64,000 nucleotides of DNA from Candidatus Moraniibacteriota bacterium (GCA_016699385.1 CP064974.1:890617-954616); one strand, 5' to 3'. Shown: positions 1-57,079, counted from the first letter of the stretch. Notes: generated by a model from the letters alone, not told the origin. Numbers and translations: made by a program.

Positions 1-204
1 CTTCGGGAACAAAAAAAAGTCCCGAAAGAAAAAGAAGTCCAAATCCAAAAAATGTCGTCACCAATTTCATAGTCGCAGTATATCACAAAACCAGAAAACA
101 GAAAAAAGAATCCCCCTGTCAAGAACAGCGCTTTTTTTTGCAAGAGGAGATGCAAACAAACGTTTTTGAAACTGGAACAATGAACATTCCTCACAAATTC
201 GCCA

Positions 205-236
205 AACCAAAACGCCCCCGACAAAAGTGTCGGAAG
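205..236 (-). terminator. Putative rho-independent terminator downstream of the pilin-like gene
   Basis: Hairpin CCGACA-CTTT-TGTCGG on the minus strand followed by a G/T-rich run, just past the stop of the 266..646 gene. Confidence 0.3.
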
Positions 237-265
237 CGCTCCAGAAAGAAACCTTCGAAGAATTC

Positions 266-646
266 TTAGATGCTCGAATTCGAACTCGCATTGAGCCACG
301 AATCCACAGCACTCACGATAACATAACCGATAAGTGCGACAATAACGCCCATGATAGACGCCATCAAAGCACCCTTTGCATTCCCAATACGCTTTTCGTC
401 TCCCGCAGCGGTGAGGTACATGATACCAGCGATTACAAAACCGACAATCGCAATAAAACCCAAAATCGCGAGGAGATAATTCATCGTTGTATGGATGATG
501 TCATACACGCTCGCATTCGGCGTGCCACCACTCTGCGCATTACTGTCCCCGGCAGACCACTGTCCAAACGCTACCATTGGAACCGTCACAAACGTGACGA
601 TAAGCGCGAACGCCCCGATATTTTTCAAAATAAGTGATTTCTTCAT
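266..646 (-). CDS. Small secreted two-helix hairpin membrane protein, VirB2/TrbC-pilin-like (paralog 1)
   Basis: Start chosen at MKKSLILKN with a GGAGGTG RBS 7 nt upstream. Signal peptide, then two hydrophobic helices separated by the charged loop TAAGDEKRIGNAKG. The ORF-track alternative start at 694 would add 16 aa. Confidence 0.6.
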   Translation of the reverse strand: MKKSLILKNIGAFALIVTFVTVPMVAFGQWSAGDSNAQSGGTPNASVYDIIHTTMNYLLAILGFIAIVGFVIAGIMYLTAAGDEKRIGNAKGALMASIMGVIVALIGYVIVSAVDSWLNASSNSSI

Positions 647-731
647 AATATTTCTCTCACCTCCTTTCTGTTTTAATATTGAGCATTTATCCATTCATCA
701 TTCCCGCCTTCGCGAGAATAACGGGAAAATG

Positions 732-1001
732 TTATGCAAAAAATTTCGCTATTGCTCGAACCAACACCAAGGCTCCTAGCCCAATCGCGACACCGACAAT
801 CGCCCATGAGAACGACTTCTTCGCCATATCGAGTCGCGCCGGACTCCCGCTTGCTGTGAAGTACAAAATCCCCGAAAACACTAGTGCAATTATAACAACA
901 AACCCAAATATCGACAACAAAAGGTCAAGCATACGAAAGAGCGCCGTCGCCAAAGTCGGCGCATCATCAATCACTCCAGCAGCTTGTACAATAGGAATCA
1001 T
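732..1001 (-). CDS. Two-helix hairpin membrane protein, VirB2/TrbC-pilin-like (paralog 2)
   Basis: 89 aa with two TM helices and the loop TASGSPARLDMAKKS, which shares the [TS]A[SA]G..(I/L).AK motif with its neighbours. Confidence 0.55.
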   Translation of the reverse strand: MIPIVQAAGVIDDAPTLATALFRMLDLLLSIFGFVVIIALVFSGILYFTASGSPARLDMAKKSFSWAIVGVAIGLGALVLVRAIAKFFA

Positions 1002-1021
1002 AATAAGAAGTACGTGGAAAA

Positions 1022-1744
1022 TTATAATCCGTATTGTTTATTCCTTCTCCACAATTTCACAACTATCCATGCGCCAATGCCAACCAAAACCAGCACAACA
1101 ATCCCAATAATCAAAACAACCACATTCGTCCCACCAGAAGTGCTCGCCACCGTACCCGCCGTCACAACAGGAGCCACCTGAACACCGCGTAAAAGCACTT
1201 CTCCCGACTTCGGATCTTTTATTACATCATTGTTTTGCTTCAGTAGTTTCTGCGTTTCCGGACTGAAATGTACAGCTGTTCCGACACAATCAGGAATGCA
1301 GGTATTCATATTCTCCCCATTCTCATACTCACAGATATTATTCTCATTGCACGTAAGAAATTGGGAAAGATCTTGAGACAGTATAGGAGCACTTATGCCC
1401 GATCGATATACCGCAAGCGAACGAGCAAAGCTCAAATACGGCGCATCAAAAAGAAAGGCACCGTCAGTATCGGGACTGAAATTCTTATGAGCTATTTCTT
1501 CTCCATTTTCAAAAAGAAACACGAGGGAGAAATCCCCGCCAGCACCTTCATCAAAAAATTCTAACGGATTCAAATTCTGGTCAGGATTTACTTGAACAGG
1601 GATACCTTTTGATTCATCAAATATCAGTCGATTCGACCCTTTGTCATACTGAAAGTGTATCTGATAAATAGAAGCATCTGCCCGAGATAATGGGAGAAGC
1701 CCAAGAAACACACTCACCAAAAAAAATACAAAGATATTTCTCAT
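1022..1744 (-). CDS. Secreted hypothetical protein with C-terminal TM anchor
   Basis: N-terminal signal peptide (MRNIFVFFLVSVFLGLLPLSRADA), four Cys in the middle, and a C-terminal hydrophobic anchor followed by WRRNKQ. Confidence 0.6.
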   Translation of the reverse strand: MRNIFVFFLVSVFLGLLPLSRADASIYQIHFQYDKGSNRLIFDESKGIPVQVNPDQNLNPLEFFDEGAGGDFSLVFLFENGEEIAHKNFSPDTDGAFLFDAPYLSFARSLAVYRSGISAPILSQDLSQFLTCNENNICEYENGENMNTCIPDCVGTAVHFSPETQKLLKQNNDVIKDPKSGEVLLRGVQVAPVVTAGTVASTSGGTNVVVLIIGIVVLVLVGIGAWIVVKLWRRNKQYGL

Positions 1745-1771
1745 AACAAATTTCAGAACGTCAAAAACTCA

Positions 1772-3367
1772 CTACTTGCAGGAGCTTGCGTACTCGGAAA
1801 CTCGATCACAATAGGACTTTCCGCTCTGGATCTCCCCACAATCATACCATTTTCCGCCAACATTTCTCGGAGAAATATTGCAATGATACCCTCTATTATA
1901 GCATCCTGCCAAGCTTTTCAATCCATCGATTGTACAATCTATGCGCTTAGATGAATCATCTACACATTTAACATTATGCGAACTCTTGAATCCTGAAGCT
2001 ACCTTCGCACCGCAAGCGATATCCTTATTAACATCCGCCTTCATTGCATCGCAACTAGAGAATCCGCATAACGCTTTGTAGTTACTTGGCATGGTCTGTG
2101 AAACACCACATGCTCCCGTCGGAGAAGACGCTTTCGAACACGTTCCCGTTTGTCCATAATGCTCTCCTGCCTGAAGAATTGCCATATAGTCATTCGCCGG
2201 CATAAATGTCTGATTCTGCACAGCCGCCTTCACAGCGGGGTCATTTGCGCAAGCACCAGTTCCACAGGTCACTGTTCCTCCGCCACCACCCGGCGTTGAT
2301 CCACCACCACTCGTTGCACCGCTAATCCCCGATCGCACATACTTTGACTTTGCATCACAGCTATAGGTAAACCACGATCCATTCGTCTTGAAGGAAAATG
2401 CTGCCGTATCCGTCCCCAAGGCACCATCCGCGAGCACCATGAGAATCACATTGATAGCGACCCATCCCAAAAGCACGATAGCAAATCCATAAAGCGCCGC
2501 CTTGATGCCGCTCTTCGCAAGACTAATCATCTGCGTATTCCCCGCCGAGACAATATAGAGTATTCCCATCGCCACCAAGACGGCGAAGGCAATATATGTC
2601 ATCACCATGAAAATCCAGCTCGTGATATTTTTCATGAGCAAGAAAAGATGGCACAGCGTGCAAATCGCCGACTCGTCCACGTCTCCCGTACTTGGATCAT
2701 CACAAGATCGCCCACATGGGACAATGCCGGAATTTGCCGAAGAACATCGCGGAGCAGTTGATGGATCGACCTGCGTCTTACAGCACGTTTGCCCCGTAGA
2801 ACAGTCAAATTGCCCAAGTGGCGTCCCCGCGCAAGACGTAACCATTTCACAGGTACCTCCCTGATCTTCAACGCATTTCTCTGTTGTAGTCCCAGCAACA
2901 AAACAACACGCCCCTCCACCCGCACACCCCGTCGCACCCGTGAGCGCCGTTCCCGACGAACATGTAGCACTAGCCGAACACGTCCCCGACTGCGTTGCGC
3001 CACTTGCATCCTTGCCAGAACAAGAAGTAGAAGGTGGCGGAGCCGTCGTCTTGCAACAAGCCGTTGTATTATCAGTACAACTCTTGGTAATATCCACCCC
3101 GCCTGAACATGAAGTTTGGCAATTAGTTGTCGGCGTACAGGCACCACTCGTTGGACGAGGAACACAGCACGTTTGAAATGTCGGACAGTTTGACCCTCGT
3201 ATAAACGTCTCCGTCGCTGTATTACAAGGATTTATACCGATTGCGCAATGACCACTCAATTCACTCACACAATCAAATGCCGCCCTTGATTCGAAAGAGA
3301 ATCCAAAAATCCCTGAGAATACGAAAATCCCCAGCAAGAAAAAAAAGTATTTCTTCAAAATTCCCAT
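1772..3367 (-). CDS. Large Cys/Thr/Gly-rich secreted protein with an embedded VirB2/TrbC-like two-helix hairpin (paralog 3)
   Basis: Signal-peptide start MGILKKYFFFLLGIFVF at 3367 (the ORF could extend to 3487). There are more than 50 Cys in low-complexity T/S/G-rich segments. The central segment IFMVMTYIAFAVLVAMGILYIVSAGNTQMISLAKSGIKAALYGFAIVLLGWVAINVIL has the same hairpin and loop motif as the two small neighbours. Confidence 0.6.
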   Translation of the reverse strand: MGILKKYFFFLLGIFVFSGIFGFSFESRAAFDCVSELSGHCAIGINPCNTATETFIRGSNCPTFQTCCVPRPTSGACTPTTNCQTSCSGGVDITKSCTDNTTACCKTTAPPPSTSCSGKDASGATQSGTCSASATCSSGTALTGATGCAGGGACCFVAGTTTEKCVEDQGGTCEMVTSCAGTPLGQFDCSTGQTCCKTQVDPSTAPRCSSANSGIVPCGRSCDDPSTGDVDESAICTLCHLFLLMKNITSWIFMVMTYIAFAVLVAMGILYIVSAGNTQMISLAKSGIKAALYGFAIVLLGWVAINVILMVLADGALGTDTAAFSFKTNGSWFTYSCDAKSKYVRSGISGATSGGGSTPGGGGGTVTCGTGACANDPAVKAAVQNQTFMPANDYMAILQAGEHYGQTGTCSKASSPTGACGVSQTMPSNYKALCGFSSCDAMKADVNKDIACGAKVASGFKSSHNVKCVDDSSKRIDCTIDGLKSLAGCYNRGYHCNISPRNVGGKWYDCGEIQSGKSYCDRVSEYASSCK

Positions 3368-3419: not shown

Positions 3420-4829
3420 TCATTTCCTTTCCACCTGACCAATCCGGCTTTCAGCAGTCGAGAGCGATTGATTGATAGTTGCTTCACCGAGATTAATGGA
3501 CGTAATCATATCGGCCAAGATTTTCTCGATACTTTCCGGATCAGATTGCTTCCAGTTGCGTGTGATGAGGTTGCCATCAGCAAACGGTCCGAGAATTGGG
3601 TCGGTTTTTTGCTTTTCCACCAAGTCACGGCGAGCTGCTGGTGCACCGGTTTTCTCGAGATAGGTCGCCGCCGGGTCAAATGTGCTTGTAAAATCTTTGG
3701 CATTTCCGGTAATCGCATTTTGCAAATGCACCGTGCCTGTTGGCGGAAACGCCGCATATTTCAAGAACTGCCATGATTCAAAAGTTCGTATCTTGTCAAA
3801 AAGCGCCAAATCTTTCGTTCCCGCTGGAGCCGTCTTGTTCTTGGCAACGACAAATCCCCAGTAGTTTGGGAAATTAAAGGGCTGCGCCCCCGTTGACTGT
3901 GGCAAGGGAGCTACGGCAAAATTCAGTTTCGAGTTTTTGCGCTTGATGGTGTCATAGTGCCATGAATAGTTTATCATCATTGCCGCTGTTCCCTCATAAA
4001 ATGCGTCTATTGAGTAGTGCATACGCGGATTCCACGTGTAGAGCGACGAGGTCGGATTGGCAAACTGCGTATAGAAGGTAAGCGCATTCACGCCTGCCGC
4101 CGCATTCAAGCGGAGATCGCGTCCATTCCCGCGCGGAACCAAGACGCCATTTTGTAAGAGGAGTGCCGAAAGCACATCCGTCGAACGATTAATGTTCCCC
4201 GCTGTCCCGAGTGCCGCGCCTGATTGCGTAATCTCACCAAACGAATTGATGCGTGTGAGGAGTCGCACATCATCCTGAAACTGATCCCATGTAGCAGGAG
4301 GCGCCGTAATACCCGCTGCCCCCAAAAGATCCTTGTTATAGTAGAGCGCGAGCGAATCCGAAGAGAGCGCCACACCAGTAATCTTCCCCTCATCCGTCAC
4401 GAAGTCATCGCCCACTGTATCAACAAACGCATTCCGATAACTTCGCTCATCTATGAGTGTATCGGGCGCCATGACAATCTTGTCGGCAAAAGCGGGCGTC
4501 CACGAATTTCGAATAAGGAAAATATCCGGACCATTCCCCGCTGCAAGCGCATCAAGAAGATCCTGCCGATACGTATCAACCGCGAGCTTCCGATACGTGA
4601 CATTGCCTACATTCGGATTGAGATTCTTGTATTGCCCAATAACCTGACGGAGTGCTTCTGAATCATCAAAAATCCCCCATATCTCGAGGTTCATCTTATA
4701 AGCTGTATCCGTCTGTCGGAGTCCGCATCCGGAAAGCAATAACACTATCGCACCGAGAATCGCTCCTGAAAAAATTCTAGCAAGAATCTTCTTCATACCG
4801 ACATTTTTATTTTTGATTCCCTTTTTCAT
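3420..4829 (-). CDS. ABC-transporter extracellular solute-binding protein (family-1, sugar type) lipoprotein; orphan with no permease/ATPase adjacent
   Basis: 469 aa with lipoprotein signal LLSGCG. The overall sequence resembles periplasmic sugar-binding proteins. Alternative start MKKILARIF at 4796. Confidence 0.75.
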   Translation of the reverse strand: MKKGIKNKNVGMKKILARIFSGAILGAIVLLLSGCGLRQTDTAYKMNLEIWGIFDDSEALRQVIGQYKNLNPNVGNVTYRKLAVDTYRQDLLDALAAGNGPDIFLIRNSWTPAFADKIVMAPDTLIDERSYRNAFVDTVGDDFVTDEGKITGVALSSDSLALYYNKDLLGAAGITAPPATWDQFQDDVRLLTRINSFGEITQSGAALGTAGNINRSTDVLSALLLQNGVLVPRGNGRDLRLNAAAGVNALTFYTQFANPTSSLYTWNPRMHYSIDAFYEGTAAMMINYSWHYDTIKRKNSKLNFAVAPLPQSTGAQPFNFPNYWGFVVAKNKTAPAGTKDLALFDKIRTFESWQFLKYAAFPPTGTVHLQNAITGNAKDFTSTFDPAATYLEKTGAPAARRDLVEKQKTDPILGPFADGNLITRNWKQSDPESIEKILADMITSINLGEATINQSLSTAESRIGQVERK

Positions 4830-5763: not shown

Positions 5764-5848
5764 GGAGAGGTCGCATAGTGGCCGAGTGCACTCGCTTGGA
5801 AAGCGGGCATACCGCAAGGTATCGAGGGTTCGAATCCCTCCCTCTCCG
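5764..5848 (+). tRNA. tRNA-Ser (anticodon GGA)
   Basis: Acceptor GGAGAGG/CCTCTCC, anticodon loop TTGGAAA, long variable arm ATACCGCAAGGTAT, T-arm GAGGGTTCGAATCCCTC. Confidence 0.85.
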
Positions 5849-6036
5849 CAACGAACAAAGTGGGTGAAGAAGGGAGGAAGGAAGCCAAGTACTTGGCTTC
5901 CTTAGGGATGAGAAAGGCGGAGCGATGTTTTGCGAGTGCGCGAAACCGCAAGCCAGGGTCGACCTTGACATAGAGGGTGTTTAACACTATAGTCCTCGCA
6001 GCACATTCCCAAACCCAAACGAGGAGGATCGAAAAG

Positions 6037-7997: not shown

Positions 7998-8499
7998 TTG
8001 AACATAATTTTAGATCCGTGTCAATGATAGCATATGCATATGTTTTTTCAAAAATTTACCGTACGATCATAGGTACTTGGTGGAGTACTGGATATTGAAG
8101 CACATACGTTCTCACTTCGTCCCACCCCTTCCGCCAATAGCAGATAGCACGAGATTTAAGTTTATGGATGCCTCTAAAAGAAGAAGGGGTCAAACACTAT
8201 CAATGCGGTGGGTGTTTTTTTGTTGCTTTGCCTGATACGTTTTCCAGCGATGCAGCACTGATTAAGAAATCATTAACGAAGTAAGATTTTTGAAAAATAA
8301 AATTGAAAAGTTTGTATACATCTCCTGACGCAATGTATACAAACACATATACTTTGTATACCTTACAGTAAAGATGCCAGCAAACTATGCAAAATATTAA
8401 AATTGGCAAAAATATAGAACAAAAAGAGGGCTTCAAAGCATTTACTCTCAATCCCTTTCCAACAAGAGAAAGTTTTATTTTTGAGCCAAAAATCTTGAA

Positions 8500-9309
8500 A
8501 TGATTAAACCTCATAAACCAATCGACGAAGAAGAATACAAGAATCACCCAGTTTTCTCCAAATTGGATGAAATATTGATTTTCTATAAAATGCTATCATT
8601 TTCAGTATTTGGCCTCTTAAAACAAGGGGCTGGAGCGACTTGCAATTTCAATATCGATTCATACCTTTATTCCTCAGTCCAAGGAACAATAGAATCTATA
8701 AAATACATACTTAAAAAAGGCCGAATTAACGATGCCTATGCTCTACTTAGAAAATACTACGATTCATCAATTATTAACGTTTATTCCAATTTATATCTAG
8801 CCGATAATTTTACCTTAGAAAATTTTGTTGTAGAAAAAATTGATAATTGGTTGAAAGGAAAAGAAAAACTGCCCGAATATAGAATCATGTCTCAATATAT
8901 CCAAGGGTCAGAAAAACTCCGTAAGATAAATGAAGTGCTATACAGGGATGATCGATATAAAGAAATTCGAGATCGGTGTAATGATCATGCACATTACAAT
9001 TTTTATCAGAATGTCCTACTTAACGACAACGAGATATACCTGGAAAACAACATAGAAGCACTAAGTGTTTTTTTAAACGATATCGAACAACTTTTCATTC
9101 TGCATTTAGCATATATATTTTATCTCAATGGGCACTACATGATGTCTAGCGATTACACAGACTGCTTAGATATTGGTATAACTCCTCCAGAAGAATCTCA
9201 GTATTACGTTGCTCCATTTGTACAGAAAGCTTTTGATGATTTTATAAAAGAAAAAAGATTAGATTTAGCCGAAACTATAAGATTAAGTACAGAAATGAAG
9301 TTAACATAG
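8500..9309 (+). CDS. Hypothetical protein in a strongly AT-rich islet; possible HEPN-like R-x5-H motif (RDRCNDH)
   Basis: 269-aa ORF with markedly lower GC than its surroundings. Rich in N/K/Y/I. The motif is only suggestive. Confidence 0.5.
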   Translation: MIKPHKPIDEEEYKNHPVFSKLDEILIFYKMLSFSVFGLLKQGAGATCNFNIDSYLYSSVQGTIESIKYILKKGRINDAYALLRKYYDSSIINVYSNLYLADNFTLENFVVEKIDNWLKGKEKLPEYRIMSQYIQGSEKLRKINEVLYRDDRYKEIRDRCNDHAHYNFYQNVLLNDNEIYLENNIEALSVFLNDIEQLFILHLAYIFYLNGHYMMSSDYTDCLDIGITPPEESQYYVAPFVQKAFDDFIKEKRLDLAETIRLSTEMKLT

Positions 9310-9592
9310 GTGTTTTGAGCTACAGGCATTCACCTATTTAATTCTCCTCTGCTCTTCGCCTAAAACGGAAAACAGAATCGGATTTTTCCTTTGTAAGGAT
9401 AATTTCTTTCAGAAATCAAAGGAAAACATGTACATCATATAACATGGCGTACCTAGTTACGGCTTTTACATAAAAGCTTCCACCTATATTTACCTCCACT
9501 ACACCACGGCAAACATCAAATATGCCGATACGTTATACAAAATTCTGCCCTGCTTGTAGAATATATTCATCATTTAAATTTAAGAAACGTTT

Positions 9593-9883
9593 ATGAAATA
9601 CGGACAATTCACAACTTTCCAGACTGCAGATGGAAAGGTCGAGGAACTGAGAAACATTCTTCTGCAAGCTTCCAAAGAGATGTGCGTTACCAAAAGCTGT
9701 CAGCAATACACAATCGGTAGCGACAAGGAAGCCGCGAATACTCTTCACGTATTCGAAGTATGGGAAACCAAGGAAGATCATGATTCATCTCTGAATTCAG
9801 AAGAAGCCAAAGAACTCATCAGCAAAGCAATGCCACTTTTAGCAGGCAGACCTCAAAGCGTAGCAATGGAAATAAGCGAGTAG
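9593..9883 (+). CDS. Antibiotic-biosynthesis-monooxygenase (ABM/Dabb) domain protein
   Basis: 96 aa. Pattern LHVFEVWETKEDHD...HL is typical of ABM ferredoxin-like fold proteins. Confidence 0.6.
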   Translation: MKYGQFTTFQTADGKVEELRNILLQASKEMCVTKSCQQYTIGSDKEAANTLHVFEVWETKEDHDSSLNSEEAKELISKAMPLLAGRPQSVAMEISE

Positions 9884-9983
9884 AGGCAAAACATCGCCTA
9901 ACAGCATATAAACAACTCGTTCCGTTTGCTCAAATTGACTCATAGTTCCCCTCAGGATATTCTACCGCTGGTCATCTTCATTT

Positions 9984-10922
9984 ATGCACAAACGTTATGA
10001 AGCCCCGCTTCGCGCGTGCGTCGGTCATAAAAATCCCGTTATGCTCCCCTACAAACACGAATACGACGCCTTTGGATCACATTGGGAAATCACGGTGTGG
10101 GACGCGATTTCAGAACAGGATTTCAGAACGATGACACAAGAAATACTTAGAAGATCAGATCAATTCGAACAATATTTCTCTCGTTTCATCCCGACGTCAC
10201 TCGTCTCGCGCATCGCGACCGAGAAGCAGACAGGCGCTCTCGAAGTGCCCGCTGACTTCACAGCAATGCTTCGTCCCTACATACACCTCTATGAGGCGAC
10301 AGCAGGGAAAATCACGCCCCTCGTCGGACACACCCTCTCCGATCTCGGCTACGATGCCGACTACTCACTCACGCCAAGAGAGATCATCCGGCTCTCCCCT
10401 GATCTCTTGGAAACGGTCACCATCCTCGACGACACGAGCATTTCTCTCAAGTGCCCCGTCCTCTTTGACTTCGGCGCGATTGGCAAGGGCTACTTCTGCG
10501 ATCGTATTGCGGACTTCTTGCGTGAGGAACACGTCGAACAATTCCTTGTCAATGGAAGCGGCGACATCGTCTATGAAAGCACTGGCATGCCGATACAGGT
10601 CGGGATCGAGCATCCGGGCGACGCAACCAAAGTCGTCGGATCAGTCGAAATGACCCGAGGCGCCCTGTGTGCAAGTGGCACCAATCGCCGCCGCTGGCGA
10701 AATCATCACCACATCATCGACCCTGACACCACCGAGTCCCCCGAGCAATTCCTCGCTACCTGGGTCATCGCCGAAAATGCCGCGCTCGCCGATATCCTTG
10801 CAACCGCCCTCTTCCTCGCCAAGCCAGACGCCCTCCGAAAGGTCTATCCCTTCGAATACGCCACACTCGACACAGACCTCACCCTCCGCCAATCCCCAGA
10901 CTTCCAAGCAGCAACATACTGA
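9984..10922 (+). CDS. apbE: FAD:protein FMN transferase (ApbE family)
   Basis: GAIGKGY and HHIIDP motifs. 312 aa with an alternative start at 10041 (MLPYKH). No obvious signal peptide. Confidence 0.8.
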   Translation: MHKRYEAPLRACVGHKNPVMLPYKHEYDAFGSHWEITVWDAISEQDFRTMTQEILRRSDQFEQYFSRFIPTSLVSRIATEKQTGALEVPADFTAMLRPYIHLYEATAGKITPLVGHTLSDLGYDADYSLTPREIIRLSPDLLETVTILDDTSISLKCPVLFDFGAIGKGYFCDRIADFLREEHVEQFLVNGSGDIVYESTGMPIQVGIEHPGDATKVVGSVEMTRGALCASGTNRRRWRNHHHIIDPDTTESPEQFLATWVIAENAALADILATALFLAKPDALRKVYPFEYATLDTDLTLRQSPDFQAATY

Positions 10923-11765: not shown

Positions 11766-12335
11766 ATGGATAGCACAGCCTTTCTGTTGACTCCCAACAT
11801 ATTGCTCGGAGGAGTCGTATTTGTGGGAATTCTCTGCATTGCACAGTTTTTCCTCATTAGGAAGCTTTTTCGCAAGGCGAGTCAATTCGAGGAACGACAA
11901 AAGATGTTTCTCAAAGGAAAGCGTGGCGCCGACCTCGAAGCCGTCATCTTGCGACACGACCAAGAAGTCGGCAATCTCGACACCGAGATTCAGGAGCTCT
12001 TTGCTATCACCGAAAACATCCGAGCACTCGCTACCATCGGCATACACAAAGTCGGCATCGTCCGCTTTAACCCCTTCCAAGATACCGGAAGCAACCAAAG
12101 CTGGAGTATCGCCCTCCTCGACGGAAATACGACAGGCATCGTCATCTCTTCCCTCCTCTCCCGAGAATCGGCACGCGTCTACGCAAAGCCCGTTGTACAC
12201 GGACAAGCAAAAGACTTCCCCTTCACCGCCGAAGAAAAACACGCCATCGAACTCGCGCAAACATCCAGAGATTCCAAGAAAACTACCCTACCTCTAGCAG
12301 AAACCCCCTCAAAGTCTCAAAGTAGGGCAGATTGA
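11766..12335 (+). CDS. Hypothetical N-terminally TM-anchored protein (DUF4446-like?)
   Basis: 189 aa with an N-terminal TM helix and a central conserved-looking region IVRFNPFQDTGSNQSWSIALLDGNTTGIVISSL. Confidence 0.5.
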   Translation: MDSTAFLLTPNILLGGVVFVGILCIAQFFLIRKLFRKASQFEERQKMFLKGKRGADLEAVILRHDQEVGNLDTEIQELFAITENIRALATIGIHKVGIVRFNPFQDTGSNQSWSIALLDGNTTGIVISSLLSRESARVYAKPVVHGQAKDFPFTAEEKHAIELAQTSRDSKKTTLPLAETPSKSQSRAD

Positions 12336-12394
12336 ATACTTTCTCTAACGTAGATACAATCCAACCGTATCACGTTTGTTTGAAGAAAACTCTC

Positions 12395-12450
12395 TTTTTG
12401 TGGATTTCGAAGCGAGCACGCAAAGACAAGCAAAAAAGGAATTTTCTTCA
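12395..12450. repeat. Short intergenic repeat, copy A
   Basis: Core TTTCGAAGCGAGCACGCAAAGACAAGCAAAAAA is shared with copy B at 16043-16096. Confidence 0.6.
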
Positions 12451-12522
12451 AACAATTCAGACATACAAACGCATTCGCACCCCACAATTCCCATTCGCAT
12501 CAATTTCTAATGTATCATTCCT

Positions 12523-14298
12523 ATGGATGAACCCATCACAACCGACGAGCCGAAGAAAATAGTCAAAATACCGTCATCCGTCAGTGTCAAACACCTTGCG
12601 GAAATCTTTGGTACGCCGGTCTCGACGGTCATCATGGAACTCATGAAGAACAAAATCCTCGCAACCATCAACGAGGAAATCGACTTCGAAACCGCGAGTA
12701 TCATCGCCCAAGACATGGGATTTGAAACCGAAGAAGACCTCGAGACCAGCGGAAGTGAGACCCTCACTCTCGAGCGACTCCTCGAAATTTGCGCCCAAGA
12801 AAAAGCCTCAGGAAAAACCCTCGACACGCGCCCGGCAGTCGTCACTATCTTGGGACACGTCGACCATGGCAAGACGACGCTCCTCGATACCATCCGCACC
12901 ACCAATGTCGCAGGCAAAGAGTCCGGTGGCATCACCCAAGCAATCAGCGCCTACCAGGTCAAGAAGCGTGGCGAACTCATCACATTCATTGATACACCAG
13001 GACACGAAGCCTTCTCTGCTATGCGCGAACGTGGCGTTGCACTCGCCGATATCGCTATCTTGGTTGTCGCTGCAGACGACGGTGTCCGCCCGCAAACCAA
13101 AGAAGTCATCTCCTATATCCGCGAACACCATATCCCTACCATCGTCGCCATCAACAAAGTCGACAAGCCCGAAGCGAATATCCCCCGCGTCAAACAAGAG
13201 CTCGCCGACAACGACATCCTCCTCGAAGAATGGGGTGGCAACTATCCAGCAGTCGAGATTAGCGCCAAGCACGGGAAAAATATCGACAAGCTCCTCGAAC
13301 ACATCATCCTCGTCGCCGAGGTCAATGATTTTCAAAGCGATGCAAAACGCGACGGACTCGCCCTCGTCCTCGAGTCACACCTCGACCCACAAAAAGGACC
13401 CGTCGCCGTTGCCCTCGTCAAGACTGGCACACTCAAGGTTGGACAAGATGTCACCGTTGGTAGTGCCTACGGTCGTATCCGTCGTCTCGAAGACTTCGTC
13501 GGAAAAAACATTCTCTCCGCATTACCGTCAACTCCCGTCCGACTCTATGGTTTGAGCACCGCGCCCAATACCAATGACGTCATCCAAGTCGTGAGCAGCA
13601 AAGTCGCCGCGCGACTCAAGTCTCGCGAACGCATGACCGGTGGCGCCACCAAGAAAGACGTTCAGGTTGTGCTGAATGACGATGTGAAGAAATTCCCCCT
13701 CCTTATAAAAACCGATGTCCACGGCTCACTCGAAGCAATCGAGCAAATCCTCTCAACGATTCCATCAGATGAAATCGTCATCGATATCGTCGCCAAAGGC
13801 GTCGGAAGCATCACCGAGAGCGACGTCCGCATCGCAGCGAGTGCCAACGCACTCATTGTCGGCTTCAATGTAAATCCCACGCCAGTTGCCAGTCGCATCG
13901 CCGAAACCGCCAAAATCGATATCAAGAGCTTCAGCATCATCTACAAGCTCGTCGAATTCGTCAAAGAAAAGCTCTCCGCTCTCCTCCCCCCCGAAGTCAT
14001 TCGCACCGATCTCGGCACACTCTCCGTCCTCGCCGTCTTCAAAACCGGCAAACACGACATGATTGTCGGCGGTCGCGTGAGTGATGGCAAAATCCTCAAG
14101 GGATCGCAAATCGAAATCAAGCGCGAAGGAGAAATCGTCGGCACCGGTCGCCTCGCAAGCCTCCAGCAAAACAAGAAGAACACTGATGAGGTAGGAAGTG
14201 GCAACGAATGCGGGCTCACCATCGACACCACCACCAAAATCCAAGTCGGCGACACCATTCTTTCCTTCACCATCGAAGAAAAGCGCCGCACACTCTAA
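12523..14298 (+). CDS. infB: Translation initiation factor IF-2 (short form)
   Basis: GHVDHGKTTLLD G1 motif, DTPGHEAF, NKVDK; 591 aa. Confidence 0.95.
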   Translation: MDEPITTDEPKKIVKIPSSVSVKHLAEIFGTPVSTVIMELMKNKILATINEEIDFETASIIAQDMGFETEEDLETSGSETLTLERLLEICAQEKASGKTLDTRPAVVTILGHVDHGKTTLLDTIRTTNVAGKESGGITQAISAYQVKKRGELITFIDTPGHEAFSAMRERGVALADIAILVVAADDGVRPQTKEVISYIREHHIPTIVAINKVDKPEANIPRVKQELADNDILLEEWGGNYPAVEISAKHGKNIDKLLEHIILVAEVNDFQSDAKRDGLALVLESHLDPQKGPVAVALVKTGTLKVGQDVTVGSAYGRIRRLEDFVGKNILSALPSTPVRLYGLSTAPNTNDVIQVVSSKVAARLKSRERMTGGATKKDVQVVLNDDVKKFPLLIKTDVHGSLEAIEQILSTIPSDEIVIDIVAKGVGSITESDVRIAASANALIVGFNVNPTPVASRIAETAKIDIKSFSIIYKLVEFVKEKLSALLPPEVIRTDLGTLSVLAVFKTGKHDMIVGGRVSDGKILKGSQIEIKREGEIVGTGRLASLQQNKKNTDEVGSGNECGLTIDTTTKIQVGDTILSFTIEEKRRTL

Positions 14299-14378
14299 AG
14301 ATATACTACGAACCAAAACCAAACAAAATAAACATAAAACTCCAATACATTCTGGAGTTTTGTTGTTATAATGGCACT

Positions 14379-16007
14379 ATGATGACAAGTCAAAAAGGAT
14401 TACAGAAAATCCCCATCCCTGTCGCTGAAACGCTCGCCACTCTCGAAGCGGCCGGATTTGAAGCGTTTGTCGTCGGCGGCAGTGTTCGTGATCTAATCCT
14501 GGGGAGAGAGCCAAAAGATTGGGATATCACCACCAATGCCATTCCCGAAGAAATTCAAAAAATATTTCCCGAGAGTTTTTACGAAAACGTCTTTGGCACC
14601 GTGGGAGTAAAGGTGGAAAAATTCCGCTCATTCTCCCCTGCCCAAGGAAAGATGCCGCGCACTCAAGGCAGAGGAAAGGAAGAAGCTCACGAGACAAAAG
14701 AAACTCCAGCCATCAAAAATAAAAAAGAGCACGACATCATCGAAGTCACCACCTACCGCGCCGAATCCGGCTATGACGACAAACGCCACCCGTCAAAAGT
14801 CTTCTTCGTGCAAACTATCGAAGAAGACCTCGCTCGCCGCGACTTCACCATGAATGCGATTGCTCTCTCGGCAAACGGAACACTTGTCGATCCCTTCAAT
14901 GGTCAATCTGACATTACTGCGAAAACCATCCGAGCCGTCGGGAATCCGGGCGACCGCTTCGGCGAAGATGCTCTTCGTATGCTTCGCGCCGTCCGATTTT
15001 CTGCCGAACTCCGCACGCCGATGCCAATTCCCAAAGACGCTCTCATAGAAGACAACGAGTCCACAAACTTGTTGCACAAAAACGCCGACTGGAAAATAGA
15101 GCCGGAAACATTCTCCGCTATCCAAGCGCATGCGAACGATATCCAACAAATTTCCGCCGAACGCGTTTCGGATGAACTTTCCAAAATCATCCTTTCAAAG
15201 AACCCCGCCGAAGGCATAGACCTCTTGCGCATCACCGGACTCCTCACATATATCCTGCCGGAAGTGACCGCAGGCGTCGGCGTCGGGCAAAACCTCCACC
15301 ATATCTACACCGTCTATGAGCACAATCTCCGCGCTCTCGCCACCTGCCCCTCGTCAAAACTCGATGTCCGCCTCGCCGCCCTCCTCCACGATGTTGGCAA
15401 GCCACAAACCAAACGTGGTAATGGCTATCGATCCACCTTCTACAATCACGACCATGTGGGCGCCCGCATCACCAAAAAGCTCTTGGAGCGACTCCGCTTC
15501 CCCAGCACGGTCATCGAGAAAGCAACACTCCTCGTTGACAACCACCTTTTTTACTATAATGTAGGAGAAGTGACCGCCGCTTCAGTCCGCCGCCTCATCC
15601 GACGCGTCGGTCTTGAGAACATGCGAGACCTCATGGATATTCGTATCGCCGACCGCCTCGGATCCGGCACACCCAAAGGAAAGCCCTACAAGCTCCGGCA
15701 TTTGGAATACATGATTGAGAAGGTCTCCAAAGACCCCGTGTCCGTCAAAATGCTCGCCGTGAACGGTCGAGATCTCATGGGAACTCTCCATCTGTCACCG
15801 GGACCAAAAATCGGCGCCATACTCGACGTCCTCCTCGCCGAAGTGATTGAAGACCCGACAAAAAACACTCGAGAAACCCTCCTCCAACGAGCCGAATTAC
15901 TCGACAAAGAAGACATAGAGCACCTCCGCAACCTCGCCAAAGACCGCATCGAAGAAAAACGCAACCAAGACGACCACCACGTTAAGCAGAAACACTGGGT
16001 ACAGTAA
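14379..16007 (+). CDS. cca: CCA-adding tRNA nucleotidyltransferase with HD domain
   Basis: Start MMTSQ. GGSVRDLILG...DWD pol-beta NTase head, HD motif (LLHDVGK), 542 aa. Overlaps the infB 3' end in the ORF track but the real start is downstream. Confidence 0.9.
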   Translation: MMTSQKGLQKIPIPVAETLATLEAAGFEAFVVGGSVRDLILGREPKDWDITTNAIPEEIQKIFPESFYENVFGTVGVKVEKFRSFSPAQGKMPRTQGRGKEEAHETKETPAIKNKKEHDIIEVTTYRAESGYDDKRHPSKVFFVQTIEEDLARRDFTMNAIALSANGTLVDPFNGQSDITAKTIRAVGNPGDRFGEDALRMLRAVRFSAELRTPMPIPKDALIEDNESTNLLHKNADWKIEPETFSAIQAHANDIQQISAERVSDELSKIILSKNPAEGIDLLRITGLLTYILPEVTAGVGVGQNLHHIYTVYEHNLRALATCPSSKLDVRLAALLHDVGKPQTKRGNGYRSTFYNHDHVGARITKKLLERLRFPSTVIEKATLLVDNHLFYYNVGEVTAASVRRLIRRVGLENMRDLMDIRIADRLGSGTPKGKPYKLRHLEYMIEKVSKDPVSVKMLAVNGRDLMGTLHLSPGPKIGAILDVLLAEVIEDPTKNTRETLLQRAELLDKEDIEHLRNLAKDRIEEKRNQDDHHVKQKHWVQ

Positions 16008-16030
16008 AGAAATCGGAATTGAACACAAAG

Positions 16031-16096
16031 TTTTTCGGGAGGAATTGTTTTTTGCGGCTTTCGGAGCGAGCACGCGAAGACAAGCAAAAAACAATT
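16031..16096. repeat. Short intergenic inverted-repeat element, copy B
   Basis: Arms AATTGTTTTTTGC ... GCAAAAAACAATT flank a core GGCTTTCGGAGCGAGCACGCGAAGACAA like copy A. Upstream GTTTTTCGGGAGGAATTG resembles the motif before copy C. Confidence 0.6.
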
Positions 16097-16299
16097 TCTC
16101 CCGAAAAACAGATTCTACAGATACATTCTTGCAAGTTATTAGAGCCTATCTCAAAGAGAGCTTTCGACACTTTTTAGGAATTTTTGAATGGAAAGTCGTG
16201 AAAAACAAGGAGGAATATCGGGATATTTCGACAAGTTTTGAATGATTTTCCGTCAAAATTTACAAAAAGTAAGACAAAGATTATTTTTGAGATAGACTC

Positions 16300-16370
16300 C
16301 AGAGAATTTCGGGGCATAGTATACCGGTAGTACGCATGATTCGGGTTCATGTAGACTGGGTTCGATTCCC
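16300..16370 (+). tRNA. tRNA-Pro (anticodon CGG)
   Basis: Acceptor CGGGGCA/TGCCCCG, anticodon loop TTCGGGT, T-arm CTGGGTTCGATTCCCAG. Confidence 0.75.
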
Positions 16371-16515
16371 AGTGCCCCGACAGAAGTAAAGCGCAAGGAG
16401 TGGGCAAGCACGCCAACTGCTTGGCGTGCGACTTGGAATCGAAGGGTTGAGTGATGCGTATTCACCACGAAACCCCGGTCCGGAGGAGATTCTCGAGTAG
16501 CTCCGACAAAAAAGT

Positions 16516-16842
16516 ATGAAATTCACAATTCCCTCCATTACCGACAATCCCGTTAATCTCCTGCGACGCGCCGGCTATACCTTTCAGCGCCAAGAAAACG
16601 GTGAGATGAGCTTTATCCGCCCACTTGCGTCCGCTGGCTATCCGCGCTTCCATATGTACACCAAGCTCCGGAACGAAGACCTCGATATCAGCTTTCACCT
16701 CGATCAAAAGAAAGAAACCTACGGCACAGACACCCGTCATCACGGCGAATACGAAGAATCCGGAGTTCTCAAAGAAGAGGCTAATCGCATCAAATCCTTC
16801 CTCACCCCCGTATCTGACGATTCTAGTATGAGTCCAGTGTAA
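16516..16842 (+). CDS. Hypothetical protein
   Basis: 108-aa ORF between two tRNAs; no family recognised. Confidence 0.45.
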   Translation: MKFTIPSITDNPVNLLRRAGYTFQRQENGEMSFIRPLASAGYPRFHMYTKLRNEDLDISFHLDQKKETYGTDTRHHGEYEESGVLKEEANRIKSFLTPVSDDSSMSPV

Positions 16843-37756: not shown

Positions 37757-38093
37757 ATGTCAAACCAAAAAGCGAAAGAAACTGCAGTATACCAGCTTCC
37801 TCCCATTTCATCAAGAGTACAAGTAACAAGGGATATCCTTTCAAAGCAGCACTGCCAATCACCTCACCATTGCAACACAAGCACATTTATCCCATATGAG
37901 TGCCCCCAGTATGAATCGAACATACATCGCTCCCTTAGGACGGGACCGTTCTATCCGTTGAACTATGGAGGCAGATATGTCAAGAAAATTTTCAGTGGAC
38001 TACCTACTACTCAATTGAAACCCTATCATAGCGGAATTGCAATCTCGGCAGGAATTTGGAATAGCTATTGAGCAAACCAGTTACACATCCCAT

Positions 38094-38672
38094 TTATCTT
38101 AGACACTCCTCGACCAATTCCGAAAACTCCCCTGTTTTCATATCTTTGAGGCAGAAATGTCCGTAGCTGTGAAACTCTTTATAATCAATACCCTTAACCT
38201 TGTCTCGAATAATTTGAACTGATTTATGAATAGTAATATCATCATTGTCCGAATTGAATAGAGTGACACCCTCCGTACGTTCAACTAGTCCCCGGTCTAT
38301 CTCAAACTCAAAGAAATCAGCCGTGTCATAAATAGGATTATTTTCAGGATTGAGCCAAGGTGCAACCAAAACAACCTTACTAACTTTTTTATCTCTATTC
38401 TCACTCAACCAACGAATCAAAAAACCACCTCCGCAACTATGGCCAACTAAGACTGTCTCTGGCGTGATATCAAACCTTTCAAACTCTTTCTTCCAAGTAT
38501 CATAACGAGGCCTCCAAGGTTCTGGCAGCTCAATTGCTACTGCAAACACATCATTAATTTGAAGTTGCTTTGATAACCAAGGAAACCAGTGATTATTACT
38601 ATTCGTTGGACACTTTGGGTCGTAATATTCCTCTTTATCTGGTCTGCCTGGAACTAAAATCGCATTCTTCAT
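38094..38672 (-). CDS. Alpha/beta-hydrolase-fold serine hydrolase (RBBP9/YdeN-like)
   Basis: GHSCGG nucleophile elbow; 192 aa. Low-GC gene. Confidence 0.7.
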   Translation of the reverse strand: MKNAILVPGRPDKEEYYDPKCPTNSNNHWFPWLSKQLQINDVFAVAIELPEPWRPRYDTWKKEFERFDITPETVLVGHSCGGGFLIRWLSENRDKKVSKVVLVAPWLNPENNPIYDTADFFEFEIDRGLVERTEGVTLFNSDNDDITIHKSVQIIRDKVKGIDYKEFHSYGHFCLKDMKTGEFSELVEECLR

Positions 38673-38699
38673 ATTTCGAAATTCTCTCGTTATACCACG

Positions 38700-38772
38700 T
38701 GGACCGTAGGAGAATCGAACTCCTTACCTCTTCCATGCCATGGAAGCGCTCTACCAAATGAGCTAACGGCCC
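38700..38772 (-). tRNA. tRNA-Ala (anticodon GGC)
   Basis: Reverse complement GGGCCGTTAGCTCATTTGGTAGAGCGCTTCCATGGCATGGAAGAGGTAAGGAGTTCGATTCTCCTACGGTCCA. G3:U70 Ala identity pair. Anticodon loop ATGGCAT. Confidence 0.8.
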
Positions 38773-38949
38773 AAACAAACATTTTTCAGGGGATATCCAC
38801 AACTTTTCCACAGAAATCCCATGGTACATCGTAAGATATCGTATCATGTTTCCCTGCTTCGTCAAATAAATACCCAAGAAATACCATAATACTCGCACAA
38901 TCCACAATTGATCTTTATTCCACAGTGTGAAGCAAAAACAAAATTCCAT

Positions 38950-41150
38950 AGATATTGTTCCACATGTTCCACAGCACTCGAACAAAATGTCTATTTTAAA
39001 TGGGCTATCATATCCTAGCGCTTTCACGAAAAATACGCATCGAATGCTCCCCATGAAACAAAATACTACAGCACAAAAAAATGTTTCACAAGAAACATAG
39101 ATTCTTCAAGTACTCCTTCTTCAGCTCTCACAGATATCAAGAACTCATACAAAAAAATCAGAAATGCCCCACCATTAGCAGCCCTGATACACATAAGATT
39201 TGTCTCTACTTCTTCCCATAAAGCTACTTCAATCCTATACATTGTTCCACACGAAACACAATATCGATCGCTATGAAAATAACACATGTGCTTCACGTGG
39301 AACAACATCGTTATTCTCCGATGCCTAAGGAATCTATGTTCCATATGAAACACCACTCAATTCCCTTAAAAATGATTCCGAAAAATGTACAACTAAGAAT
39401 ATTCACAAGGAAAACATATCAGGAGGAAAACAACTCTCCACCGCTATTGGACTAATCAATGTTCCACGTGAAAGAAACAAATATCAAATAATGATTCCTA
39501 GACGTACAAAAGTGTGTTCCACGTGGAAAATATTATCAAGTTCATGTTCATACCGACCCTGATTGCAAAGGCACATTCAGTACTGATTATTCCTGCGATA
39601 GAAAATTATTGTTCCACATGGAAACTTACTTCCGAGACACGCGGCAACTCACACAAAAATGTGTTCCATGTGAAACATAAGAACCACCAATCCACACTGG
39701 ACCAAAAAGAACCACATGAAAGCTAAGAAGAAGATTCATAAAGAAAGCATAGAGATACACCTATAAAGAATGACGAAAAGGAAACCCTTTTCATCAAGAG
39801 ATGCCCTCACCAAAAACAACAAGAAAACGATTGTTTCACGTGGAATATATTTTCAATACATATGAGTTTCACGTGGAACAATTCCAATCATTTAAAGAAA
39901 ATAAACTTGTTGCACGTGAAACGACTAGTAAACAGCAAAGACCTGTTTTTGATACAAGTAGCCACAATTGTTCAGCCGTAAATATCACCTTCTAGGGGCG
40001 CTCGCTACTCATCCAGAAGATATCCTCCTATGCCCGCAATACCCTAAATACCATACTATTACGAAATTGTGGTAAGTGAAATGTTCCACAGAGAACATCA
40101 TGCAAAAAATAACAGAAACAGAAAGTTCCACATGGAACAATACGAAAAACAGATCGAATGAGAACATCAATAAAGAATACTCTTCATAAAGAGAGTCCTC
40201 AGAGAAAACGTAGGGGATATGCAATTTTTCTCTACTCAGAAAAAATCCGAGAAACATAAAAAATACTATTCCACATGGAACAACTCATCGATTCATTTTT
40301 CCTAGCAAACAAACGAGCGATATTTTTAGCAAAATTACCACTAATTATACAAAGGGTATCTCTTCTTAAAATTGGAGTGATTGTTCTACGTGAAACAGAT
40401 ACTCCAAGAAATTCATTAAGAAATGTTTTTTAGAAAGTAGAATGTTCCACAAAGAACATCATTCTCACAACAATCGTTCGGATGAGCGCGTTACTTTTGG
40501 TATATCTACTATGAAAAGGGCTTTCTTTGTGAAACAAAATAAGATATCTAGCATTGTTCCATGTGAAACAATTCTAGAGAGACTAAATATCAATATTGTG
40601 ACATCTAACTCGGAATCCTACCGAAATCCTAAGTGCAGCACTGAAAGAAAATCTCTGTCCGTCTAGAAGATTCACCTATTTTTTATTCCACTCTTCTTTA
40701 AAAACTCAATAGCCTTATCTAAAGACTCTGCATGTTCCATGTGGAACTTTACACTAAAATGTAAAGTGTTCCAGAAAAACTTCAAAGATATCATAGAACA
40801 AGGAGAAAACCTTTCAAAAAGCATCTTTTGCTGCAAGATTTCCAAATTTTGAGAAAAATTCTAAAAACGAGTCTACCTGTATCGCTGCGTGGAACATTGC
40901 AGACGGGAAAGACAACCAAAAAAGATATCCTGACGAAATACACATATCTTGCCTGCAAACAGGCAAGCAAATTTTGAAAATCAAAGCAAAGCATGAAGCT
41001 ATCGGACGAACTCTAAATGCCTTAGATTTCCGTTCCAACTTCAACATTTTCCAAACAATGCTTGCCCTACAAAAAAGCCTCAACATTGTTTAGACAGACT
41101 ATGAAAACGCACAAACCTTAATTAAGAGAAGCATGCGTTCCATAATCGCT
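38950..41150. repeat. Dense array of about 18 parS-like 16-bp palindromes (TGTTCCACGTGGAACA and variants) in a 2.3 kb ORF-free AT-rich region; candidate centromere / ParB-loading region
   Basis: Copies centred near 39251, 39300, 39345, 39467, 39523, 39618, 39670, 39838, 39874, 39915, 40090, 40130, 40275, 40389, 40451, 40562, 40738. At least 8 are within 0-2 mismatches of the canonical parS TGTTNCACGTGAAACA, e.g. TGTTCCACGTGAAAGA, TGTTCCATGTGAAACA (x2), TGTTCTACGTGAAACA, TGTTGCACGTGAAACG, AGTTTCACGTGGAACA. Spacing is irregular (35-176 bp). Flanked by divergent genes. Confidence 0.75.
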
Positions 41151-41390
41151 GTTGATATTCCTTTCAAACAAAAATCTATCGAAAAATATATTCGCTGTAG
41201 ATACCTTCCTCTATTTAAAGAAAAAATCAAAAAGTGGAAGAAAAGAAAATGGCGTCATTTATAAAGGGTATCGTTATTCTCGTTACAAACATTGAATTCA
41301 AGTTCAGGAAAAGCACTCGCATATGTTGCAAAAAAAATTATTTTAAAAAAAGTATGCTATACTATTAAAAGTATTTCGCTTCGAAACTTT

Positions 41391-55407: not shown

Positions 55408-56157
55408 GTCAAAAAGATTCTCTGAGAGATTTTGGCTCAAGTGAAAGATAAAAAAAGAATTTCTTTTCTTTTCCAACGAATATTTTTCGAAAATACCTCA
55501 AAAAAAATGCTGATGGGATTAATCGAAGAATGCTTTTGTAGAGACATTCTCCAAAAAAACTTCTCCCGCGTTGACCCAGCACTTTTTTTCTGTTATACTG
55601 AGATTGTTATCAAGTGAAAGAGCAGTTCATTAAAAAACAAAAGTACTCACTAGTTGACCCGTCCGGCGAAGTCCTCTCTTCATCGAACGGTAGCGGGGTT
55701 CCAATCGCAATTTCCCCCTATTTGCGATTGGACTCCCCCTACTGTTCCTCCTCGAAAAATTTCGAGGCTCTCCTTCATCCGACAAGGAGAAACCAAAAAA
55801 CAAAAACAAATTTTCCTGTCGAACAAAAATAAAGACAGAAAAATAAAAAGAAAAAACAAAAAAACAGTTCTTTCAAAAAGGAATCAAAAAAAGGATTCCA
55901 AAAAACCAGGCTAAATGCCAAGGACACGGTACGGGCGATACTCAATCGGAAGAGTGTTACAACTTACATGCGATCATATCACGCGAAGTTCTTAATGGAT
56001 TACTGATGCTCCTCACCCGTGCTAGGTAACCGGAACACGCGTTGGCGCATGGCCGGGGGCTACCCACCAACTTATTCATATTTGGGTGCGCGTAGCACCC
56101 GGCAACCAACTCTTTTATACTTTTCACTCACAACTTCTCATTCTCGAAAGTCCCGAA

Positions 56158-57075: not shown

Positions 57076-57079
57076 CCTT

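Follow-up and report, generated by a model that had tools for sequence, protein, structure and literature searches.

Gene organization of the locus

We analysed a stretch of 64,000 nt from an ultrasmall bacterium, Candidatus Moraniibacteriota bacterium (CP064974.1:890617-954616, GCA_016699385.1), referred to as the window, at one end of which lies a group of genes that all reside on the minus strand and are transcribed in the order E, D, C, B, A, F. This region is the 5' two-thirds of a cassette that is conserved in Moranbacteria (Patescibacteria) and comprises a sugar-type solute-binding lipoprotein (E), a secreted membrane protein combining a pilin-type hairpin with a predicted lytic-transglycosylase-type domain (D), a gene that varies between species (C) and an array of genes of the pilin-like family PF18895.

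The first cassette gene, E (3420..4829, 469 aa), carries the lipobox LSGC and matches the family-1 solute-binding proteins (SBPs; PF01547 SBP_bac_1, E 5e-25), with weak further matches to MalE/UgpB-like NCBIfam models. No permease or ABC ATPase gene was seen adjoining E, in agreement with its initial annotation as an orphan, co-directional solute-binding lipoprotein. It is followed by D (1772..3367, 531 aa), which is identical to the NCBI protein IPJ67_04360 encoded on a 1,111,322-bp contig of a Candidatus Moraniibacteriota metagenome-assembled genome (MAG), and by C (1022..1744, 240 aa), for which no family was found in Pfam, NCBIfam or PHROG. Hydropathy analysis of C revealed a signal peptide and a C-terminal transmembrane (TM) segment, as expected for the secreted, C-terminally anchored protein that had been proposed. 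The position of C is variable among relatives, being occupied by an unrelated protein in contigs L003 and L005 and by no gene in L007, L016 and L019. In L005, an AbiEii/AbiEi toxin-antitoxin pair (12256..13556 of that contig) is inserted after the C-like gene.

The genes B (732..1001, 89 aa, hairpin at nt 750..953) and A (266..646, 126 aa, hairpin at nt 278..508) encode small hairpin proteins. Hydropathy and translation confirmed that A has a signal peptide (MKK...VAFG, nt 563..646) and that B has none. The latter also holds for the distant relative L007, where B starts MLIPVAYASGVIEDAPT; in L003 and L005, the B orthologs carry a hydrophobic leader of 25-30 residues before the same AAGVIDDAPT. 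The AlphaFold 2 (AF2) model of A contains two helices (residues 47-79 and 84-123) at a predicted local distance difference test score (pLDDT) of 78.5. Among the genes considered here, A alone has a strong Shine-Dalgarno sequence (AAGGAGGTGA), and it is directly followed by a 17-bp stem-loop with a U-rich tract on the same strand (208..244), which RNA folding assigns -35 kcal/mol (z -5.2; none of 200 shuffled sequences as stable) and which looks like a terminator or attenuator; a 195-nt spacer comes next. Because of the strong ribosome-binding site in A alone and the terminator-like hairpin, A is likely the major subunit.

The window edge cuts the array, such that only the first 23 codons of the next hairpin gene, F (1..70, minus strand), lie inside. 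We thus resorted to contig L001, which is 98-99% identical to the window (98.7% over 2.6 kb, a comparison that also identifies F), for the sequence beyond the edge. There, A is followed by F (268 aa), G (97 aa), H (241 aa) and I (315 aa), all four matching PF18895, where F has a signal peptide, three six-Cys modules and one hairpin, H a Cys-rich N-terminus and a hairpin, and I two hairpins. The array hence comprises at least seven hairpin genes with eight hairpins. The six-Cys modules of F are present in this species and absent in L003. Downstream of I, two minus-strand genes precede NusA; they are poorly conserved in L001, L003, L005 and L007, and no T4SS (type IV secretion system) signature was found in them in any of the four contigs.

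A hairpin of the PF18895 family

Alignment of A, B and D revealed one paralogous hairpin common to all three, in which two hydrophobic helices are joined by a short loop, and all three match Pfam PF18895 T4SS_pilin (A, 32.2 bits, E 1e-7; B, 37.8 bits, E 2e-9; D, 23.9 bits, E 4e-5). A and B, and also G (38.2), H (30.5) and I (60.2, two copies), exceed the 26.6 bits required by the gathering threshold of this family; D and F (23.8 bits) come just under it, and several close homologs of D have precomputed PF18895 matches. On the basis of these profile matches, we assign the hairpins to PF18895. The initial annotation had placed the same module in three consecutive genes; the shared module and the paralogy were borne out, but the genes are not strictly adjacent, C lying between D and B.

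Identity to the hairpin of A amounts to 32% for B and 23% for D, with a G, a Y, a second G and the dipeptide AK invariant in the alignment. The joining loop follows the motif [AS][AS]G-x4-[IL]-x2-AK, which retains the G-x4-[IL]..AK pattern described earlier but has two residues rather than one before AK and [AS][AS] in the first positions. Alignments, hydropathy and AF2 models, the last giving helical hairpins in A and D as anticipated, all support two helices connected by a short polar G...AK loop, with B lacking a leader. Furthermore, A matches NCBIfam NF045849, a pilin-like conjugal transfer protein of a Mycoplasma integrative and conjugative element (ICE), over 68 residues at 24.7 bits (E 1.4e-5; curated cut-off 40). 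Among the 123 homologs of A, every match with a named source comes from Moranbacteria/Moraniibacteriota, and some are named 'pilin'.

Several small two-TM proteins beside a lysozyme-fold protein bear a superficial resemblance to a holin-endolysin-type lysis cassette or a prophage remnant. The profile searches, which had been suggested as a means to tell pilin from holin or YqaE-type families, assigned PF18895 and returned neither PHROG matches nor holin or YqaE Pfam matches for A, B and D. Signal peptides on A, D and F, the conservation of seven positional orthologs among housekeeping genes in many species, the lack of nearby phage genes and the fusion of the enzyme to a hairpin and Cys-rich ectodomains likewise speak against such an origin. 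With no PHROG or holin matches and with housekeeping neighbours, we consider it effectively refuted, its residual probability being minimal.

Domain architecture of D

Protein D starts with a signal peptide (residues 1-29, nt 3281..3367; hydropathy and translation), which is followed by an N-terminal ectodomain of four six-Cys modules (nt 2780..3271), each with the pattern C..C..C..C..CC detected by regular expression in the translation, and by the membrane-proximal motif VPCG...CTLCH (nt 2648..2722). The pilin-type hairpin (residues 243-315, nt 2423..2641), located by PF18895 and AF2, contains two TM helices and the loop SAGNTQMISLAK. A flexible Gly/Ser-rich linker (residues 316-372, nt 2252..2422), which includes the invariant C337, then leads to a C-terminal domain of SLT/g-type-lysozyme fold (residues 373-531, nt 1775..2251) with the motifs CGVSQ and CYNRG and the candidate catalytic residue Glu402 (nt 2162..2164).

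A secreted protein of about 530 aa with a hairpin in its middle had been expected from the initial annotation, and this is what we find. Its cysteines were overestimated at more than 50, as D has 44 in total; the hairpin is free of them, while 29 belong to the N-terminal ectodomain and 15 to the C-terminal part. Nor is the hairpin flanked by low-complexity CxxC-type segments: on the N-terminal side there are the four six-Cys modules, which also occur in F, H and I of L001, and on the C-terminal side there is a folded enzyme domain. The only true CxxC in D is the invariant CTLCH that precedes helix 1. In the AF2 model, the N-terminal ectodomain is β-rich, with a pLDDT above 90 for the third module; the hairpin helices extend over residues 238-273 and 278-315 (pLDDT ~85), and linker residues 340-363 have a pLDDT below 50.

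Across an alignment of 70 homologs, C218, C236, C239, H240 and C337 are invariant, and V216, P217 and G219 are nearly so. C236-T-L-C239-H240, which marks the outer end of TM helix 1, corresponds to CxxCH, the motif by which heme c is classically attached, and C337 is located just past TM helix 2. This invariant Cys/His set might form disulfides that staple the ends of the hairpin, as a rough analogue of T-pilin cyclisation, or a metal site, or it might serve yet another role.

The C-terminal domain of D

Direct searches with the C-terminal domain of D against PDB sequences were empty, both with phmmer (0 matches) and with a profile of the D subfamily (0 matches). The domain assignment was therefore taken from the structure in combination with a chain of profiles. 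The predicted structure of residues 373-531 shows an SLT-like helical lysozyme fold, and this segment contains the candidate catalytic Glu as well as GLMQ-like and AYNxG-like motifs. Many relatives of D are shorter, at about 350 aa, and consist of a signal peptide, VPCG..CTLCH, the hairpin, a Gly-rich linker and a PF01464 SLT domain. In a BLASTP alignment of D with such a PF01464-positive relative, AGEH of D is opposite AESS, which holds the catalytic Glu, and GVSQ is opposite GLMQ; invariant in the D subfamily are G-E402, C-G-x-S-Q424 and C-Y-N-x-G493. The profile of the D subfamily aligns with that of the SLT-positive relatives at an hhalign probability of 86% (E 5e-6), and the latter profile in turn finds MltC, EmtA and Slt70 in the PDB (E 3e-14 to 4e-9). 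By sequence and model, the C-terminal part of D is hence predicted to be a lytic-transglycosylase-type enzyme with a conserved Glu.

The PF01464 threshold is passed by the positional orthologs P0039-P0060 and by the hairpin::SLT gene of locus L065. More generally, positional orthologs of D have either PF01464 or a sub-threshold match to PF18896 "SLT_3 lysozyme-like" at the same place, from which we conclude that a lytic function was probably kept while the type of domain was swapped. The SLT-like subfamily of D itself is narrow, as it is represented by 12 cluster representatives among 1.84 billion proteins. The consecutive accessions PF18895 and PF18896 suggest that database curators may have seen pilin and lysozyme-like domains together.

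Conservation of the cassette in relatives

The gene order methyltransferase, SBP, hairpin::lytic protein, pilin array, and further on NusA, recurs in L003/L004, L005/L006, L007, L016-L018 and L019, and L001 has the cassette as well. Array members are orthologous across species by position, as every one of them has a recognisable positional ortholog in those contigs. In L005, a gene of the bAvd/23S_rRNA_IVP type (16292..16669 of that contig) is found between two array pilin genes; bAvd-type proteins are accessory proteins of diversity-generating retroelements. In L020, the SBP gene, a D-like gene and five pilin genes stand in a different genomic context, and two of these array members have weak precomputed matches to PF04956 TrbC.

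A scan of GTDB species representatives for the D-class hairpin returned 53 loci, almost all from Moranbacteria/Moraniibacteriota. According to a local profile tally, an SBP gene immediately precedes the D-class gene in about 21 of the 53, and 18 of these roughly 21 SBP-headed loci have 2-7 further hairpin open reading frames (ORFs) downstream. The same SBP position is seen in L003, L005, L007, L016-L020 and L047. The succession of SBP, hairpin::lytic protein and pilin array thus recurs in related genomes, where the initial annotation had advised to look for co-occurrence of the three hairpin genes. Many public MAG records that contain this cassette (L022, L025, L031, L034, L035 and others) are titled 'uncultured Bdellovibrionales bacterium', which looks like a mislabelling.

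Linkage to type IV secretion genes

In relatives, gene types of the cassette are physically linked to VirB4 and PrgI. In 12 of the 53 loci, VirB4 and the D-class hairpin gene are no more than 8 kb apart; virB3/virB4 neighbours within about 20 genes are found in L047 and 11 other loci, but not at the locus described here. Seven of the 12 loci, for which we inspected the gene maps (L042, L044, L049, L056, L065, L069 and L070), share one common order: a TrsD-like gene (~229 aa), VirB4 (PF19044, E 2.7e-30), a gene of ~170 aa, an Rce1-like gene, a gene of ~920 aa, a hairpin::SLT gene (PF01464, E 4e-13), a D-class hairpin gene (PF18895, 29 bits) and a gene of 384 aa. In L047, a methyltransferase gene, the SBP gene, the D-class hairpin gene, an I-type double hairpin gene (PF18895, 64 bits), PrgI (PrgI/VirB3, 32.4 bits, above threshold), a TrsD-like gene and VirB4 are contiguous and co-directional.

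VirB4 itself is highly conserved, with at least 79% identity across the best 120 of more than 8000 matches, which, where named, belong mostly to Moranbacteria or the Parcubacteria group; no IPJ67 entry was seen among these best 120. In Table S1 of a published survey, as far as its sampled Moranbacteria assemblies go, VirB4 is scored present in 30 of 36 (PMC12102498).

The Rce1-like gene of these clusters encodes a CAAX-type membrane protease (PF02517, E 2e-5; L065 3446..4117), two genes downstream of VirB4, with equivalents in L042, L044, L049, L056, L069 and L070. This protease is possibly a pilin-processing enzyme.

Relation to known systems

Arrays of VirB2-like pilin genes have been described before. 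A survey detected 441 such arrays, each with 2-11 genes, across 383 assemblies of Patescibacteria, using PF18895 among its detection profiles (Quinonero-Coronel et al. 2025, PMC12102498), and a series of pilins in the T4SS locus of Southlakia epibionticum is essential (Wang et al. 2023, PMC10633639). PF18895 proteins are also among the most highly expressed genes of no known function in cultured Patescibacteria (PMC10936435). The system is thus of an already described, widespread kind, and not as unusual as it had first appeared. With these arrays, including the 'Sec-secreted array' of TM7x, our locus shares tandem divergent PF18895 genes on a patescibacterial chromosome, signal peptides and a low identity between paralogs (23-32% here, compared to a published mean of 25%). 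It differs from them in not being located beside virB4, in being headed by a hairpin::lytic-transglycosylase fusion together with an SBP lipoprotein, in carrying six-Cys modules on several members and in having two hairpins in I. The papers that could be searched make no mention of the hairpin::lytic-transglycosylase fusion or of an SBP partner. What is new is a divergent lytic transglycosylase fused to the hairpin, an SBP conserved beside it, a member with two hairpins and the decoration with Cys modules.

The mating-pair-formation (MPF) system of type T, with its order virB1-virB2-virB3-virB4 on the Agrobacterium Ti plasmid and relatives, likewise has a lytic transglycosylase of SLT fold followed by a pilin, the latter having a signal peptide and two helices that form a hairpin around a short polar loop. 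There, however, VirB1 is a separate, soluble, periplasmic protein, whereas in D the enzyme and a pilin-type hairpin are parts of one protein; in addition, our locus shows marginal VirB2 similarity, a monoderm envelope and many paralogs, and no virB3/virB4 adjoin it. Membrane-anchored hydrolases of Gram-positive systems, such as TraG of pIP501, often add a CHAP amidase/peptidase domain (PMC12102498), while D has no CHAP domain, uses a two-helix hairpin of the pilin family and adds an N-terminal Cys-rich ectodomain. The Mycoplasma ICE protein Mbov_0395/MMCAP2_0565 (NF045849) is also small, pilin-like and two-TM and belongs to a monoderm T4SS, but its gene stands alone on a mobile element, in contrast to the chromosomal array reported here, and A scores below its cut-off.

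These relationships matter in several respects. Much of bacterial diversity belongs to the Patescibacteria, and genetic tests, available for one of their species, show that life on host cells depends there on the T4SS and its pilin array. The hairpin::SLT fusion is found within VirB4 clusters as well as in front of pilin arrays that stand apart from them, and its lytic domain is divergent enough to escape standard profiles. The locus provides a candidate for the missing VirB1, reveals an SBP as a conserved partner that had not been expected and, with A, I and D, supplies positional orthologs that are amenable to testing.

Proposed role of the cassette

We propose that the cassette, consisting of an SBP, a lytic transglycosylase anchored by a pilin-type hairpin, a variable gene and a PF18895 array, works together with a T4SS encoded elsewhere, a reading to which we assign a probability of roughly 0.6. 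In this mechanism, each protein would enter the membrane via Sec and adopt an N-out/C-out topology, with the short Lys-bearing G..AK loop facing the cytoplasm, which would agree with the signal peptides, with Cys-rich segments on either side of the hairpin and with the need of the enzyme for access to the wall. The small paralogs would be extracted and assembled by the VirB4-type T4SS into a pilus-like or channel-lining surface structure. D would dock at the assembly site via the same hairpin and cut the cell's own peptidoglycan locally, acting as the functional VirB1 of a monoderm system, and the six-Cys modules, on D as well as on F, H and I, would form exposed parts of the surface that evolve fast and vary between lineages. 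The SBP is probably coupled functionally to the cassette. The succession of D and pilins mirrors that of virB1 (a lytic transglycosylase), virB2 and virB3, and most genomes with VirB2-like pilins lack VirB1 (PMC12102498); we thus regard D as a candidate for this "missing VirB1". In the initial annotation, a pilin-like hairpin fused to disulfide-rich ectodomains pointed to a surface appendage or adhesin system; an adhesin is not supported, as the C-terminal ectodomain of D is predicted to be of the lytic-transglycosylase type.

A number of results weigh against this proposal. Neither VirB4, VirB6, VirD4 nor PrgI was found in the 64-kb window or in the 10 kb beyond, and tblastn with Moranbacteria VirB4 gave no match in the window. 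The link to a pilus or T4SS suggested at the outset is accordingly upheld by the family and by the VirB4 linkage in relatives, but not by machinery near the locus itself. Furthermore, when a profile of the hairpin was compared to six genuine VirB2/TrbC proteins from annotated plasmids, the similarity was weak (61 co-linear columns, score 21.9, P 0.0018, hhalign probability 14.9%), with controls, namely the reversed sequence and AtpE/ATP-synthase c, scoring at most 13 over at most 8 columns. Searching PDB sequences with the hairpin profile found no solved conjugative pilin, and no conjugative pilin was among the top 50 Foldseek matches of the AF2 model of A in the PDB; the matches obtained are generic helical hairpins such as ATP synthase subunit c (E >=0.7), which do not discriminate. 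Profile matches in the PDB to 'Pizza' designer proteins were discarded as spurious. As to D, it reaches none of the Pfam SLT thresholds (PF01464/PF13406), its best match being SLT_2 at E 0.29, and hhalign places the register at E402 one residue off from BLASTP. The bulky ectodomains at both ends of D also seem incompatible with tight helical packing. To our knowledge, no pilus built from the PF18895-type hairpin family has ever been visualised. VirB4-dependent pilus assembly has not been shown for any Patescibacterium, and a 2025 review treats a pilus in these monoderm bacteria as an open possibility (PMC12857230).

The description of the modules as VirB2/TrbC-like is hence appropriate at the level of the PF18895 family, but direct homology to VirB2/TrbC is only faint. 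From the sequence comparison, homology of the hairpin to canonical VirB2 is plausible, and the putative functional analogy is based mainly on gene neighbourhoods and literature.

As similarity to real VirB2 pilins, in sequence and in fold, is not discriminating, the hairpin could instead be a generic two-helix anchor or scaffold that tethers extracytoplasmic domains independently of any T4SS and forms no pilus, with the small paralogs remaining in the membrane as its partners, where they might organise a surface layer or an enzyme raft. In line with this, a variety of unrelated ectodomains are found attached to the VPCG..CTLCH hairpin (SLT, SLT_3-like, Flg_new_2, β-propeller, CARDB-type and Cys-rich modules), and most cassettes, including this one, are located among housekeeping genes, far from VirB4. 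Against such an anchor speak the contiguity of the L047 cassette with PrgI, the TrsD-like gene and VirB4 and the paralogous pairs of hairpin::SLT and hairpin genes inside the VirB4 clusters of the seven inspected loci. According to published data, moreover, 1135 of 1948 assemblies have PF18895/VirB2-like genes in the neighbourhood of virB4, and S. epibionticum cannot do without the array in its T4SS locus. Altogether, we deem a T4SS-independent anchor improbable, although it deserves to be taken seriously.

A different role for the enzyme would be that of a host-directed feeding device, where the enzyme of D, by way of its long linker or a pilus, cuts host peptidoglycan at the site of contact and the SBP captures (anhydro)muropeptides or sugars. 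The tight and persistent linkage between the genes for the SBP and the hairpin::lysozyme protein, which is kept where the cassette has other genomic neighbours, is consistent with this, as are the 57-residue disordered linker between hairpin and enzyme in D and the swapping of the lytic domain type among orthologs with apparent retention of a lytic function. On the other hand, no ABC permease or ATPase adjoins the SBP, and nothing found here puts the enzyme of D at a host cell; lytic transglycosylases of T4SSs, moreover, usually act on the wall of the producer (cited in PMC12102498). We therefore judge feeding on host wall to be rather unlikely, and local cleavage of the cell's own peptidoglycan remains the preferred role of D. 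Equally speculative is an extended form of this reading, in which the pilin-type hairpin of Moranbacteria would serve to attach enzymes and Cys-rich binding modules to a surface filament built by the T4SS. D would then be displayed on a pilus or tether and breach the wall of the host bacterium, the adjacent SBP would harvest the muropeptides or sugars set free, and the cassette would be an apparatus dedicated to feeding on the host wall rather than a self-directed VirB1 with pilins.

Additional observations

The remaining genes of the window are ordinary chromosomal ones, including those for ribonucleotide reductase, CCA-adding enzyme, GyrA, FtsH, TilS, GlmS, PNPase, ComM and KsgA. A tRNA-Ser(GGA) gene is located on the plus strand at 5764..5849, where it separates the methyltransferase gene from the ORFs that follow, and accounts for overlapping spurious ORFs in its vicinity.

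In L047, a trio of genes for ComM (Mg-chelatase-like), a G5/DPBB protein (RlpA-type, lytic-transglycosylase-like) and KsgA directly follows the VirB4 cluster (13188..16285 of that contig). The window also contains this trio, at 57555..61127, but without VirB4 upstream; it is preceded there by an LspA-like gene (56588..57520) and unannotated ORFs (53956..56225). This difference in context could be the scar of a rearrangement.

Two stretches of the window, 8001..10000 and 38001..42000, have a low G+C content of 0.35-0.38, compared to ~0.48-0.50 elsewhere, and may be islands. The latter contains small ORFs and a gene for a secreted protein with bacterial TSP3 repeats (41292..42449).

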